Assembly: GCA_965205485.1 (NCBI GenBank)
Contig: OZ242180.1
Span: forward strand, 864,001-928,000
Direction of reading: 5' to 3'
Source of the DNA: Candidatus Latescibacterota bacterium
Lineage (GTDB): Bacteria > Latescibacterota > UBA2968 > GCA-2709665
DNA length: 64,000 nt
How positions within the stretch are numbered: the stretch's first letter is position 1; every line of letters begins with the position of its first letter. Of this stretch, positions 33,001 to 39,000 are shown piece by piece. The position numbers were made by a program.

Positions 33001-36000
33001 TTCAAATCATATCGACAGGAGATACCATGGCCAAATACCGAGCAGCAGTCATCGGCCTGGGATGGATGGGCATGCTCTACGATCTGGCGGAGCGTATCCC
33101 GGACCTCTTCGAAATCGACGACGTGGACCGCCCGACGCCCGAACTGGACGTCCATCGCCGGTTCTATCACCACGACCATCCGGGCACCGAAGGAAATCCG
33201 ACGTCCTATGCCGAGGCGCTGCACAACCGTCCCGAGGTGGAGCTGGCGTCTGCGGCCGACCGGGACCCGAAGCGACTCGCGGCGTTCACCGAACGCTACG
33301 GGATCGAGGCGACTTACGAGGATGCCGAAGCGATGCTGCGCGCCGAGCGCCCGGACATCGTGGCCATTGCCACGAATACAAAAGGTCGCGCCGACCTGAC
33401 GTGTCTCGCGGTACAATGCGGCGCACGCGGCATCGTTACCGACAAGCCGATGTGCCACACGCTCGAAGAGGCGGACCGCATGGTTTCAACCTGCGCCGAT
33501 GCGGGCGTCCCCCTCAATTGCGGTGCGATCTCGACGACCCACCCCTCTTTCGGAAAAGCCAGAGAACTGGTGCAAAGCGGTGCCATCGGGGAGATCCTGT
33601 CGATCGAGGCGAACTCACCGTTCGCGCAACATCAGAACTGGTCGTATTTCCTGGATAGCGCCCCTGCCTGGGTCTCAGGAATCGGAGACCTCCCCCGTCG
33701 TGGAGCGGGTACCGACGAGTTCGCGGGACCTGGAGGAAGCGACGAATTCAGGGGCCAGGGAATCATGGTCACGGAAGACCAGACGGTCGTACACTTTCGA
33801 GCGGGAGCGCCGGGGGTCCGGCTGGAGGGGAGTACGGGTGAGATCGAGTTCAGGGCGGGCCGTCGATGGCGGCTGAGCCAGCAGCTGGAGACGACCGGCA
33901 ATATTCGCGTGGAAATGCCGTGGCCGGAGCCGCAGTTCGTGCATCCGTACGGCGCTGTCTACTCGCTGAACGACGTGATCGACTGCATGGAAGGCCGCCT
34001 GGACGAGCCGAAGAACTCGGGCCGGCGGATTGCCGTGGCCCTGGAAGTGGAGATCGCGCTGAAGCTCTCCTCGGCGCGAGGCGGAGAGCGCGTGGCGCTT
34101 CCTCTTGAAGACCGTTCGCTTGGGCTGAACTACGACTGGTTCCGCTAGAGAAGAGGAATTGCGTTTCAGAACGCGCGGCCGAGCCCTACGCCCACGGTAC
34201 CGGAAGCAAGAACTCGCGGGCGAGGCCCTCGAGCGACCTTACCGCTTCCGCACCGACGGGAATGCCGTTCTCCCGGTAGTCAGCCTCCTTCTTCCAGGCC
34301 CTCTGCCCCGGCAGACCCGCATCCGAAAGTCCTGGCAGCGGCTGCATCTTCGCGGTCTCGTCCATCAGGTAGCCCATGTCCGCTTTGAAGGCGTCGGGAG
34401 AGGTGAAGCGGCTCACGTCCAGGGCCATGTGAAAGCCGGACTGGTCGGCGCCCTGGAACTTCGTGGATCTCCGGTCGAATTCCGGCAGCATCTGTCCGCC
34501 CAGCGTCCCCGAGAGGATGTTGGCCACGTGGGACATGCCGATGGCCTTCACGAATACCGCAGGATTCCTGCGGACGTCCTCGTCGTCCGCCTCGAAATGG
34601 CTGGCATAATCGAGCAGGAAGTTGGGACGACCGGGGCCCGCGGGCATCCCGAAGGCCAGCGGCGGGCTGCCCTGGATGGAGCCGCGGATGCTGTCGGCGC
34701 GATTGTAGGACGGCGCCGCGTTACGGCCTGAGAGGCTGATGCCGACGAGGTCCTCCTTGAGGGCCATCCGCACGTACTTGCCTGAGCTTCCCAGATGGTC
34801 GTGATAGACAGTGGTGACCGCGCCCACGCCCAATTCTCTGGCTTTGGCAATGGCCATTCGCATCGCCCGGGTGGCGACGATCATCCCCAGGCCGCCGTCT
34901 CCGCTGAGCGCGGCGGTCGCGGGGCCTTCGTCGAGCACCCGGATGGTGGGATCGGGATTGGCGCGCCCTTCCTGGAATGAGCGGACGTAGCGCTCCACCT
35001 GCATTACGCCGTGGCTGACCACGCCGCGCAATTCAGTGTCGACCAGCAGGTCGGCGATCAGCCGGGCGTGCTCCGCGGGCAGGGGTACAGCTTCGTAGAT
35101 CGCGCATACCAGGCGCCGCAGGTCTTCAGCGGCAACGCGTATGCCGTCTTTCGGCGGGACGTTCACTGAAACGCTCCTTCATTGGTTGTGAAGTCGGTCG
35201 TACCGGACGACATGCCATATAAAACCTCAGTGGCCGCCGGTGTCAAGGACGTAGCGACGCGACCTGCACCCCAATTGTGTGGCTTCGCTCCGCTCAGCCG
35301 CGCTTGATGAATGATTCGCGGGTAAAGCAGTATATATGGACGTTAAAAGCGCCTCGGCTCTTCGCCGGGGCGCTTTTCACGTTTGAATGCGAAAATGTTG
35401 CTGCAGCAGTCCAATATTTCTGCCGCATACCAACGGCAATGTCAATCGAAGTAATTCTGCCTGATGGATGCGGGAGGGGTGCGTTCGATGGGATCGTCCG
35501 ACGCGAGTTCGAATGCGAAACCGATGGGCGCGGGGCCGGGGTCGTCGAAGCGAACGTTGTAGGTGGTGCAGCCCCACCGGTCCCCGGTCGCGACGGCATC
35601 GAAGGCCTCGAAGGTCTGCCGCAGCGGATCGTACGCGAGGCGCCCATACAGTGTCATATCGAGACCCCGGGGCTTGTCAACCGTCAGGCCGCTGTGGGGA
35701 TTGGATTCGAAATTGGGTTCCCCTTCCAGGTGGATGCGGCCCTCCATGCGGAGCCGGACGAGGTCGGATTGGACAGATTCGACCGTCAGGCTGATCTCTC
35801 CGTCTTTCAGGTCTTCATCCTTCCATCCGTGCGATTGACCGCGTGCCGTGTCGATGAAGTGGCGCAGTGCGAGACGTCTGGTGAAGAAATCCGGCGCGCG
35901 CCAGGTCTGGCCGGGCACGACATTCCCGGGCACGAGAGACCCGGTCTCCTCCTGGGTAAACCACGCGAAGTCGATGTTGTGCCGGGGGTCCACGCCGCCG

Positions 36001-39000
36001 GAGTTCCGCGGAAGGTCGCGCACCGCGATTTTCAGTACAAGGCCGTTTTCCGGATAGGACCAACCGAGCATGGGATCGACGGGATAGGTTTCGGGAATCT
36101 CGGGTGACTCGCCGGTATCCGGGCGTTTCCGCCACCGTTCCAGGCTTTGCTCGAGCACTTCCAGGAGCGGCTCCGCATCCCGCGTGTTGATGGACCCCAG
36201 CAACTCGCCGTCCGAGGTACACGCGTACAGGCCCTGCCGGGTGGCCGTGGGTTCGGTTCGACCGCCGTAATGGCCCTGTTCGGCCACGAGGCGGAAGAAC
36301 TCGCCCTTGGCGTCTTTCTGCGTCTGGGTATAGCTGCAGTTGTCCGCAACGGGAATGTAGGATTCGTTGAGGATTCGGATAATCCTGGGATGGGAAAAGA
36401 CGGACTCACGGCCCGCGATGCCGTTGTTTCAGACGCAGCCGAGCGGGTTTCCGTTCATCGCCCAGATAAACAGCGGTCTCCCCACCGAAGCCGCGCGTCG
36501 CCGGGCAGTCCAGAGATCGGTCTCCCAGCCGATATCCGTCCACCGTACTTCCTCTGGCTTTGACCTGATCAGCGAGGACAGAGATTCAATCGTGTCCGGA
36601 CCTGGCTTCCATTCCTTTTGTCGATCAGTCATATCGATCTCCTTTGTATTCTCAACTCTCGAGACCTACCCCCGTCGCCCCCTTCCTGAAGGAAGGGGGA
36701 ACGGTGATGAGTCGATGTACAGGGTTAAAGACGTGCCGGGATGGTGACATCCAGTCAATAAGAGTGTCTTTCGGTGACCGGCACGCGAAACCTGCCTTTC
36801 CTCCCTTTCTCCCGCGGGAGAGAGGGCCGGGGAGAGAGGTCTGCGGGGCTGGGTGGAGGAGTTGCTTTTGATCTTGCCTTTCATTTTTAGCTGATTGCTG
36901 ACAGCTGAGAGCTGATAGCTTCTCTTAACGTTTCAATATCCCCCCGTTCACGTCGATCGTGGCGCCGGTGATATACGCTCCCATCCGCGAGGCCAGGAAA
37001 AGGGCGGCGTAGGCGATTTCCTCGGGTTGGCCCACGTAACCCAGAGGAATGAGTTCGTTGATCCGGCTGCGGGTCTCGGGAGGGATTTGCATGCTGGTTT
37101 CGATGACGCCCGGCGTGATCGCGTTGACCGTGACGTTGCTGGCAGCCAGGTCGCGGGAGAGGGTCTTTGTCATCCCGATCATCCCGGCCTTCGAGCTGCC
37201 ATAGTGGACGCCGCCGGCGACACCGCCCGTCTGGCCGCTGATGGATGATATATTGATGATGCGGCCGCTTTTCTGTTTTTCCATGTAAGGAGCCGCTGCC
37301 AGGCAGCAGAGATACGCGCCGGTGAGATTCGCGCCGATCACCCGCTGCCACTCGGCATGGTCGACACCACTATAGGGTCCCGGGCTCGACACCCCGGCAT
37401 TGTTGACCAGGACGTCGACGCGGCCGAATTGGTCGAGAGTCCTTTGGACGAAGGCGTTGACATGTGTCTCGTCCGCAACGTCGGCCTGCGCGGCGAGTAC
37501 GTCTTTCCCGGCAGACAGCGCATCGGCGACCGCTTCCAATGGACCCGCGTTGCGCGCAACCAGCGTGAGGCGGGCGCCCGCCTGATGGAACACCTGGGCG
37601 ATGCTCCTGCCGATTCCCCGGCTTGCGCCGGTGACAATGGCGACCTGTCCGGAAAGGTCCAGAAGGTCGGCAAGAGGTTTCTGGGACATTGGGTATTCTA
37701 CTTCAGTGATGCCCGGAGACGTAAACAGAGGCTTTTCCGGCCGTGTCGACCGATCCCGTTAGTCTCCCGGGGTCAGATGAACTTTACGCTCTTCACTTCG
37801 CGGTTGGCCAGGCGGATTCCCCGGGCCCTGTTGCCGCGAACGGGATAGTCGGCAATGGCGAATTGCTCTTCGGTGATTCTCACGCGTGGTTTGGGCTTGA
37901 AGTTAGCCTGTATCGTACGCCTGGAGTCGGTGGTGAGTTTCAGGACACGGCAGCCTTCCGGCGCCAGTTCGTACCCCCGATTCAGGATGAACTTGCCGAT
38001 TTTGCACCGTTTGATGTAAAGATATCCGGTCCGGTTCTCCTTGTAGAGTATGTTGTAGACGCGGTCTTCATCCACGAAATCGCAGAAAAGCATGCCCTTG
38101 TCCACGAAAAGCTTCTCGGGGGCGTCCACGACGGAGTACGTTCCGGACTTGCGGATCACCAGAACACGGTCGTACGGAGACACGTCGAAAAGGGCGACGC
38201 CATTGACCTGGTGGCCCAGGTAACCGGTATTCCTGTCGTAGCGCAGCTTGAGATTTCGCTGGGCGGCTTCCCGGACGTCGACCTTCTGGATGCTTGCGAT
38301 CTCTGTCCTCCGGGGGTGATCGGCCCGGTATTTCTCTATGATCCCTTCGACGAACCCGATGGCGTAGGCCTGGATGCCGCGCAGGTTGGCACGGACCTCC
38401 CTGAGGCGCTTGCGGATTTCCTGCATTTCCTCCTGGGCCTTGTTGATATCGTAGAGCGATATGCGCCTGATGGGGATCTTGAGCAGGTTATCCACGTCCT
38501 CACGCGAGACTTCCGCCCTGATGCTCTCCCTGAAGTGTTCAAGCCCTTCGAACACCGCACGGTACACATCCTCGGAGGTGGTCTCCTCCTCGATGTTCTT
38601 GTAAATCCGGTTTTCGATGAAGATCTGTTCGAGCGTCTTCGCGTGATGCCGGGCGGTCAACCGCCGCTCTTCGAGTTTGAGTTCTTTCCTGAGCAACTCA
38701 ACCAGGCGGTCCGTATTGTATTGGATCACATCGGTCACGGTGGTGATCTGCGGCCGGTTCTCGCGTATGACCAGCAGATTCGCCGCAATTGACGTCTCGC
38801 AGTCCGTAAATGCATACAGGGCGTCGACGGTATCCCTGGTATGCACGCCGCGGGCGAGCTGGATTTCAATCTCCACCTGATCGGTCGTATAGTCGCTGAT
38901 ACCCGAGATTTTGAGTTTGCCTTTTTTGGATGCGTCTTCGATGGAGGCGATGAGGGTCTCGGTTGTCGTACCGAACGGCAGTTCGCGCACGATGATGCGT

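Follow-up and report, generated by a model that had tools for sequence, protein, structure and literature searches.

The window analysed here, 64,000 nucleotides of contig OZ242180.1 from a Candidatus Latescibacterota bacterium, carries on its minus strand a gene that the gene caller has cut in two at an in-frame UGA. Read through, it encodes a 396-aa protein that is probably a soluble two-domain selenoprotein from a bacterial clan which includes selenoprotein N (SelN). Below we refer to the protein and its relatives by their motif, as the G-C-x-U-N-N-G family.

One reading frame across an internal UGA

The minus strand from 36632 to 35442 translates as MTDR...W-A-M-N-G-N-P-L-G-C-V-(TGA)-N-N-G...YFD-stop, with a single internal TGA, and a second TGA after YFD serves as the true stop. 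The earlier note had described one protein split by the gene caller, and both this translation and the homology across both halves bear it out. The start position (Sec-67) is common to close relatives. The gene and its parts are as follows.

36638..36645, minus strand: Shine-Dalgarno-like AAAGGAGA, 5 nt upstream of the ATG
35442..36632, minus strand: full gene, 396 aa with the internal UGA read as Sec; homology across both halves in 47/47 spanning matches
36435..36437, minus strand: Cys66 codon, two residues upstream of Sec; probable resolving thiol; Cys in 79/80 loci, Ser in 1
36429..36431, minus strand: in-frame UGA (Sec68); aligned with YyaL and Trx7 rows, it falls in the column that holds the nucleophilic first Cys in CxxC thioredoxins; precedes model helix 69-77
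36400..36416, minus strand: bacterial SECIS hairpin, stem GCGGGC/GTCCGT, loop CGUGA
36117..36551, minus strand: thioredoxin-fold domain, aa 28-172, DsbD-C/DsbH/YyaL/UAS subtype; probable homolog of the Sec domain at the SelN C-terminus
35496..36050, minus strand: beta-rich domain, aa 195-379, probably homologous with the core domain at the N-terminus of SelN; no solved structure close to it was seen

The AF2 model of the read-through protein (pLDDT 93; 94 had been given before) supports the N-terminal thioredoxin fold and beta-rich domain proposed earlier, and the fold matches, then headed by DsbH and DsbD domains, were again of the DsbD-C/DsbH/YyaL/AGR/UAS type. Many polar residues are invariant in the alignment of both domains (Q119, Q133, D206, N219, D221, H258, and D261). 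The invariant Q133-G134 pair lies where a cis-proline before strand 3 would be expected, with a near-invariant P128 five residues earlier.

The UGA as a selenocysteine codon

The UGA at 36429-36431 almost certainly encodes selenocysteine, judging from its conservation and the sequence around it. Matches to the protein were found in 45 of the 168 genomes of the phylum, and among the 52 matches listed, 47 span the site, each with one TGA, while the other five are fragments that stop short of it; the 45 of 168 genomes and the 47 spanning matches had been reported before. In a wider set of 80 named GTDB loci the codon at the Sec68 position is TGA in every case, the UGA is kept across loci from at least four phyla, and N-N-G immediately past it is invariant.

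Were the UGA a true stop, the locus would encode a pair of small coupled proteins or be a pseudogene, as might be suggested by the separate database entries for the two halves and by an ATG, GTG, or TTG within 12 codons past the UGA in 35/80 loci. However, the other 45 loci have no such start (the +4 codon of the present gene is ATC), TAA and TAG never occur at this position, and the residues directly after it do not vary. In the model, a cut at the UGA would also take strand 1 out of the thioredoxin sheet, and unbroken Cys homologs exist. Taken together, we regard termination at this codon as very improbable. That database entries are mostly cut beside the UGA, as had been claimed, was seen again: 116 of the 120 homologs listed in the protein search do not span the site. 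The four that do carry Cys (P0034 and P0090, both natural C-V-C-A-N-G homologs) or Trp (P0045 and P0065). The earlier worry that Cys homologs are nearly absent at the Sec position is thus weaker than stated, yet they are few.

The two Trp entries could be taken to mean that UGA has become a Trp or Gly codon in the carrier genomes. We consider this hardly conceivable, since 1,200 of the host genome's roughly 2,100 long reading frames end in TGA, as do 42/80 family genes, and since the only UCA-anticodon tRNA of the genome is called as tRNA-Sec and adjoins selB. The Trp in P0045 is probably a gene-caller reading, because its close relative L063 has TGA there.

The host encodes SelA, SelB, SelD, and tRNA-Sec, all of which had been reported, and its SelD gene itself has a TGA. 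SelB was detected in 44/45 carrier genomes of the phylum, as against 128/168 phylum genomes overall, and in 39/46 carrier genomes mostly from other phyla; it was not found over the cut-off in 1/45 and 7/46 carrier MAGs, respectively.

The bSECIS model (PMC13188914, section 5) calls for a stem of 4-16 bp, a loop of 3-9 nt with G at loop position 1-2 and located 16-37 nt after the UGA, and an MFE of at most -7.5. The hairpin at 36400..36416 agrees with it, having a 6-bp stem, which begins 12 nt past the UGA, and a 5-nt loop 18 nt past the UGA, at -7.6 kcal/mol. Across the 80 loci the stem pairs at 6/6 positions in 61 and at 5/6 or better in 75, every locus has a G in the loop, and the MFE is -7.5 or lower in 55; control offsets gave 0-2 of 80 loci. 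The stem is 92% paired compared with 22-52% in slid controls, and 21 cells changed on both sides, a number reached in 0/500 shuffles. The loop codes for its Arg with CGT in 76/80 loci compared with 10% elsewhere within the same genes. The position and compensatory changes claimed for this stem were therefore upheld, whereas 6/6 pairing is not universal. By the comparative evidence, SelB and tRNA-Sec almost certainly decode the UGA as Sec, with this coding-region hairpin as the guide.

Place among known families

With the full read-through protein as query there was no match at E<=1 in Pfam and none (0 families) in NCBIfam release 20.0, in line with what had been said of these databases, and 12 relatives also fell under every NCBIfam selenoprotein cut-off. 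Neither a 2026 catalogue of 119 families nor Table 1 of PMC13188914 contains the G-C-x-U-N-N-G family. The catalogued thioredoxin-like selenoproteins (VPGUxxT NF041383, Trx7/PDZ NF041199, HUIPC NF047660, SaoT NF040730, and TsoB NF045694) resemble it in their fold, single Sec, and UGA-split annotation, but the 396-aa protein differs from them in motif and second domain and matches none at E<=1; a few distant relatives match NF041383 or TsoB weakly (E 0.004-0.06). The description of a new selenoprotein family hence holds with respect to the catalogues, but the family is not free-standing, being part of the wider clan discussed below.

Probable relationship of the thioredoxin domain to selenoprotein N

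Sec68 lies at the thioredoxin nucleophile position in a C-x-U-N-N-G motif without the usual second Cys. The domain has a thioredoxin fold of the same subtype as Thioredoxin_7 and Thioredox_DsbH (YyaL, SPATA20-type), DsbD-C, AGR/ERp19, and UAS domains (PDB 3f9u, 2lst, 3ira, 3ph9, 7tkv, 2ju5, and 2dlx). It differs from the Thioredoxin_7/Thioredox_DsbH proteins in having U-N-N-G instead of CxxC or UxxC, in the missing Pfam match, and in a longer active-site loop, an insertion with invariant Q-G motifs, and the extra beta domain.

A profile of the family and eight distant UGA-split relatives, containing no SCUG sequence, found SCUG proteins in Poribacteria, and a profile of these in turn found 33 animal-type proteins among 150. 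From their features, not from a database label, we take the animal-type proteins to be SELENON. In a tree of 136-155 columns, with long branches and an outgroup drawn from the same profile search, the family, SelN, and the other UGA-split families were separated from ordinary Trx7/YyaL proteins (branch 98/94), and the branch parting SelN and the family from Trx7/YyaL held at 92 without the motif columns. The family forms a separate clade (98/98) and lies outside SelN proper, which a 96/98 branch sets apart. All sequences in alignments A2, A5, and A7 have Arg at Sec+7. Profile scores of the thioredoxin domain do not by themselves separate the SelN-like clan from Trx7/YyaL: bacterial SelN scored 69-73 against 64-68 for generic Trx7/DsbD, while animal SelN, at 39-46, scored no higher than YyaL (47-48). 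We conclude that the 396-aa protein likely belongs to a wider clan with SelN, and with moderate confidence that the lineage of its thioredoxin domain is sister to that of the SelN Sec domain.

The beta domain and the order of the domains

When the C-terminal beta domain was aligned to the SelN N-terminal core with hhalign, the score was 46.4 (E 3.2e-6), whereas none of 103 unrelated profiles scored above 20.9, and both have the same predicted strand order. One atlas cluster ranked third for the family beta domain and first for the SelN core. With a shallow alignment (score 19.9, E 0.045) or with the animal SelN core alone (E 0.14), the match fell short of significance, and identity to the SelN core is 11-12%. 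The nearest named structural neighbours in the ESM Atlas are DUF6263 proteins (PF19777), whose function is unassigned, with a TM of 0.52 over 145 residues, which is borderline and between predicted models, and without a sequence match; no SelN was named among the atlas neighbours. Collectively, these data point, with moderate confidence, to a beta domain homologous to the SelN core.

If the thioredoxin domain is the sister of the SelN Sec domain and the beta domain a homolog of its core, the domain order must be reversed, and we think it likely that both domains are homologous to those of SelN in swapped order (thioredoxin followed by beta in the family, beta followed by thioredoxin in SelN). 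The family shares further features with SelN (SELENON/SEPN1) and its bacterial SCUG-type homologs, which are abundant in Poribacteria: Sec at the thioredoxin nucleophile site, U-x-x-G, a Cys just upstream, a long loop before Sec, the invariant Arg, a coding-region hairpin past the UGA, and probably the same beta core domain. The motif is G-C-V-U-N-N-G (C-x-U) in the family but S-C-U-G (C-U) in SelN (SCUG; PMC12839072). In contrast to the animal matches, which carry both, the family has neither membrane anchor nor EF-hand; Pfam gave no EF-hand match in the 396-aa protein, and a hydrophobic leader is absent in 26/26 Latescibacterota loci. The protein thus looks like a domain-swapped SelN without membrane anchor and EF-hand, outside SelN proper.

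The same data could describe a real selenoprotein that arose independently from the Trx7/DsbH type, with an unrelated beta domain and a likeness to SelN due to the shared fold only. The closeness of the Trx7/DsbD scores to those of bacterial SelN would fit such an origin, as would the different motifs (C-V-U-N-N-G versus S-C-U-G-S-G), the SECIS loop at +18 instead of about +24 in SCUG genes, and the low beta-domain identity. Yet the tree split survives removal of the motif columns, the family and SelN share the long loop, the loss of the second Cys, and the Arg at +7, and the beta domain's match to the SelN core stands far above controls, with an atlas cluster common to the two. Two independent convergences being unlikely, we find this origin improbable and prefer common descent with SelN.

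Proposed chemistry

The protein is fairly likely to be a selenol oxidoreductase. The Sec68 selenolate would attack oxidised sulfur in a partner, either a disulfide or a sulfenic acid, and Cys66 would resolve the adduct through a selenenylsulfide, with the Arg at Sec+7 tuning the active site and the beta domain selecting the substrate. The protein is predicted to stay in the cytoplasm in Latescibacterota and in most Chloroflexota, and to be exported in Planctomycetota and in some Poribacteria. The neighbourhood comparison found no conserved neighbour gene hinting at the substrate. Instead, Sec might act as a non-redox nucleophile, or Sec68 and Cys66 might be ligands of a metal or metalloid, which could be reconciled with the missing canonical CxxC, with the invariant polar residues that suggest an enzyme pocket, and with the metal binding predicted for some selenoproteins (PMC13188914). 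We judge this unlikely, as Sec occupies the thioredoxin nucleophile column, SelN is described as redox-active (PMC12839072), and there are no recurrent metal-resistance genes nearby.

Implications

The results add a widespread selenoprotein family, cut in two by annotation and missing from current catalogues, in little-studied phyla, and link it to the human myopathy gene SELENON, of which no solved relative turned up in PDB searches. Residue R469 of human SELENON (Sec462+7), which is mutated in myopathy, maps onto the invariant Arg75 of the 396-aa protein.

In a broader reading, which we consider about evenly balanced, SelN may be one branch of a large unannotated clan of two-module bacterial selenoproteins, the modules being a Sec-thioredoxin domain with the invariant Arg and a beta domain without a close solved structure. 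The present family would then be its circularly rearranged soluble form, so that the two domains would make up one conserved catalytic unit in either order, and 10-18 such genes would be hidden in single Planctomycetota or Poribacteria genomes. If true, these numbers put such genomes among the larger bacterial selenoproteomes. The swapped order offers a natural way to test whether the two domains act as one unit, and the soluble protein, with its natural Cys forms, should be easy to express as a bacterial model for the poorly understood SelN; if the broader reading is right, the substrate of the G-C-x-U-N-N-G family would reveal the core chemistry of SelN.

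The gene and its in-frame UGA

In a table 11 ORF list (at least 80 aa) the gene is represented only by a 281-aa downstream piece. The claim of an earlier note, that a single protein is split in two at a UGA, was borne out by the sequence itself:

36632 to 35442, (-) strand: single 396-codon frame with one internal TGA, read from the sequence
36431-36429, (-) strand: the internal TGA (Sec), in W-A-M-N-G-N-P-L-G-C-V-U-N-N-G

A Shine-Dalgarno-like sequence lies 5 nt upstream of the ATG of this frame, and the nearest named relatives of the protein, labelled Candidatus Latescibacterota or Gemmatimonadota, are 77-89% identical to it. 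TGA also serves as an ordinary stop in the host genome, where it closes 1,200 of about 2,100 long frames.

Conservation of the UGA

A search of the phylum reproduced the figures of the earlier note: the family is matched in 45 of 168 genomes and all 47 matches spanning the site carry a single TGA, 5 more matches being fragments. Scanning GTDB genomes turned up 96 relatives, the best 80 of which were retained; their NCBI labels are 26 Latescibacterota, 22 Planctomycetota, 20 Chloroflexota, 3 Poribacteria, 3 Gemmatimonadota, 2 Thermomicrobiota and 1 Bacillota, with 3 unassigned. Among these best 80 of 96 relatives the Sec site is TGA throughout (80/80), and the residue at Sec-2 is Cys in 79 loci and Ser in 1. 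Locus L044 (genome G255), flagged as unpublished, counts as one of the 80 loci and one of 46 genomes and forms one row in alignments A2, A3, A4, A8 and in the tree; no claim hangs on it alone.

Database entries had been said to begin mostly after the UGA, and indeed 116 of the 120 listed protein homologs miss the site, most starting just past it. The reported scarcity of Cys homologs is less marked than was stated: two Cys forms (C-V-C-A-N-G) occur among the few of the 120 that span the site. Two others have Trp there, which is probably a gene-caller reading because the close relative at locus L063 has TGA at that position.

One second family copy (L119/L121, G169:C26) has its UGA and hairpin intact and a frameshift about 35 codons downstream at a short duplicated stretch, and is either a pseudogene or an assembly error. 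A subfamily (loci L061, L074, L076, L078, L079, L084, L088-L094, L097-L099, L102-L106 and L108) has 10 extra residues inserted in its thioredoxin domain, and in some members the beta domain contains a C-C pair; genome G042 holds three gene copies, one of them with S-V-U.

The hairpin and the selenocysteine machinery

A 6-bp stem with the loop CGUGA starts 12 nt past the UGA, and this hairpin agrees with the four bSECIS constraints given in section 5 of PMC13188914. Its folding energy on its own is unremarkable (z -0.6 to -1.2). Across 31 diverse loci the stem is paired in 92% of cells, against 22-52% in slid registers, and two-sided changes occur in 21 cells, a number matched by 0 of 500 shuffles, which upholds the earlier description of a bSECIS-like stem with compensatory changes. 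Pairing at 6/6, described for 25 of 25 loci, was found in 61 of 80, and at least 5/6 in 75; a G stands at loop position 1-2 in 80/80, -7.5 kcal/mol is reached in 55/80, and the same scoring at four control offsets gave 0, 2, 0 and 0, all counts that include kin and are not independent, so that significance is overstated. CGT encodes the loop Arg in 76 of 80 loci compared to 10% of Arg codons elsewhere in the same genes, a bias that we read as an RNA-level constraint which the protein could not explain.

The presence of SelA, SelB, SelD and tRNA-Sec was confirmed in the host genome, with selA, selB and tRNA-Sec in one cluster and a selD that itself carries TGA. Within the phylum, 44 of 45 carriers have SelB (the single one lacking it being 80% complete) against 128 of all 168 genomes, and SelB exceeds the cut-off in 39 of 46 carriers of unstated completeness, mostly from other phyla.

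Novelty of the family

Among the listings returned by an open-access literature library there was no paper on the family or on bacterial SelN. A Strasbourg thesis reportedly deals with a Poribacteria SelN homolog. Searches of Pfam and NCBIfam 20.0 gave no hit to the family, as had been claimed, and neither 16 members of the SCUG group (bacterial SelN-type homologs) nor the thioredoxin domains from 12 relatives scored above a cut-off. Neither the family nor a SelN-like entry appears in Table 1 of PMC13188914; the resources deep-Sep (PMC12013277) and BSepDB (PMC13326102) were considered from excerpts, and PMC4807772 had no bearing on the question. We regard it as nearly certain that this is a real, uncatalogued selenoprotein family.

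Neighbouring genes and proposed mechanism

The Sec insertion signals, the Sec at the nucleophile site and the conserved Cys66 and Arg75 are all shown by comparison among relatives. By analogy to thioredoxin chemistry, the Sec selenolate would attack an oxidised sulfur and Cys66 would resolve the adduct with the partner. The beta domain, which has invariant polar residues, may pick the partner. Metal binding, in place of such redox cycling, remains a rival account of the function. No pathway was indicated by the neighbouring genes when the neighbourhoods of family loci were compared; in the window they encode an SDR and an oxidoreductase of the Ldh_2 type, retained mainly in close relatives. 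Further upstream lies a pair kept in close relatives only:

37773-41834, (-) strand: topoisomerase subunit genes of the ParC/GyrA and ParE/GyrB types, adjacent to each other, upstream of the SDR

Relation to selenoprotein N

The Sec region is reminiscent of that of SelN. A profile made from the family's thioredoxin domain and run on 5 genomes gave, among the matches listed, close members and 7 distant UGA-split genes, with an eighth adjoining one of the 7; their motifs include G-C-U-A-A-G, Y-C-U-L-G-G and F-T-U-T-N-A, and a hairpin follows shortly past the UGA in each of the 8. A second profile combined these 8 with two family members. In the phylum to which a Poribacteria genome belongs it hit 79 of 81 genomes, with as many as 18 matches in one genome. 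Of the matches listed, all except 3 have one TGA, and 408 weaker matches lie beyond those listed; the motif in the top distant matches is E-[SA]-C-U-[GA]-x-G-K-x-[LVM]-R.

A SCUG-type profile returned 682 representatives at E<=0.001, the best 150 of which include 33 animal-type proteins. Many of these have a hydrophobic stretch near the N terminus and a motif resembling an EF-hand, and are truncated or mis-spliced at S-C. The animal-type proteins we take to be SELENON, by features and residue spacing and not by database label. The features are those in the excerpted PMC12839072, and the animal-type spacing G+1, R+4, R+7 equals that of the published G463, R466 and R469 past Sec462, likewise from an excerpt.

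The family scores 69-73 against bacterial SCUG, 64-68 against Trx7/DsbD, 47-48 against YyaL and 39-46 against animal SelN profiles (SCUG against animal SelN, 165-182), and by themselves these scores leave its closeness to SelN undecided. In a 64-row tree the family (98/98) and SelN proper (96/98) are each supported, and a 98/94 branch sets 17 Trx7/YyaL rows apart from the remainder (SH-aLRT 92 with the motif columns removed), in an alignment that is short with long branches, includes, within the clan (the family, SelN and other UGA-split relatives), 4 rows that lack Cys, and takes its outgroup from the same search. Given the profile scores and the tree, the family is judged to be a relative of SelN outside SelN proper.

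In SelN the beta-rich core precedes the thioredoxin domain, whereas in the family it would follow. Shallow alignments of the C-terminal domain and the SelN core gave no significant match (score 19.9); deeper ones gave score 40, E 2.4e-5 (30 column shuffles, at most 19.2; reversed alignment, 13.4). With other alignments 137 columns were matched at probability 87.9 and E 3.2e-6 (103 unrelated profiles, at most 20.9; beta-sandwich control, 14). The match was not significant against the animal core alone (E 0.14) and reached E 4.4e-6 against the bacterial and animal core combined. An AF2 model of a bacterial SelN core (pLDDT 91), compared with the family model by eye, has the same order of strand, strand, helix, short strand, helix, two long hairpins and last strand, with two insertions. 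One ESM Atlas cluster (172 aa, 133 members), equated between searches by its identical description, ranked 3 for the beta domain (0.94) and 1 for the SelN core (0.90, borderline). The beta domain and the SelN core are probably homologous, and if so the family would have the two-domain core of SelN in reverse order. The family is best read, with good likelihood, as a soluble, domain-swapped relative of SelN: the claim of a new family stands as to its being uncatalogued and probably fails as to its being free-standing, in view of the 98/94 branch and the beta-domain match.

SCUG genes in the phylum of genome G168 (L135-L160) reach 18 matches per genome, frequently in tandem, some being fused to ECF sigma factor domains, a redoxin-like tail or beta-sandwich tails, and a few SCUG-type members (L204, L205, P0123) have G in place of Sec. 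The Planctomycetota genome G172 (loci L115, L116, L122, L124, L126-L129, L191, L193, L196-L201) holds at least 11 UGA-split clan genes and 6 further UxxC/UxxG-type thioredoxin genes; nearly all of these have a hairpin soon past the UGA, and none tested exceeded an NCBIfam cut-off. Two of its clan genes are neighbours without the upstream Cys (L127:1243-2154 and L127:2229-2933; F-S-U and R-L-U), and a related gene, L192, has Arg at the Sec site. A thioredoxin-like gene with I-P-G-U-Q-T (L190, G170:C74) resembles the VPGUxxT selenoprotein family by motif.

In the tree animal SelN falls within the bacterial SCUG group beside the database protein P0152 (98/84), a placement that may be relevant to how the animal gene arose.
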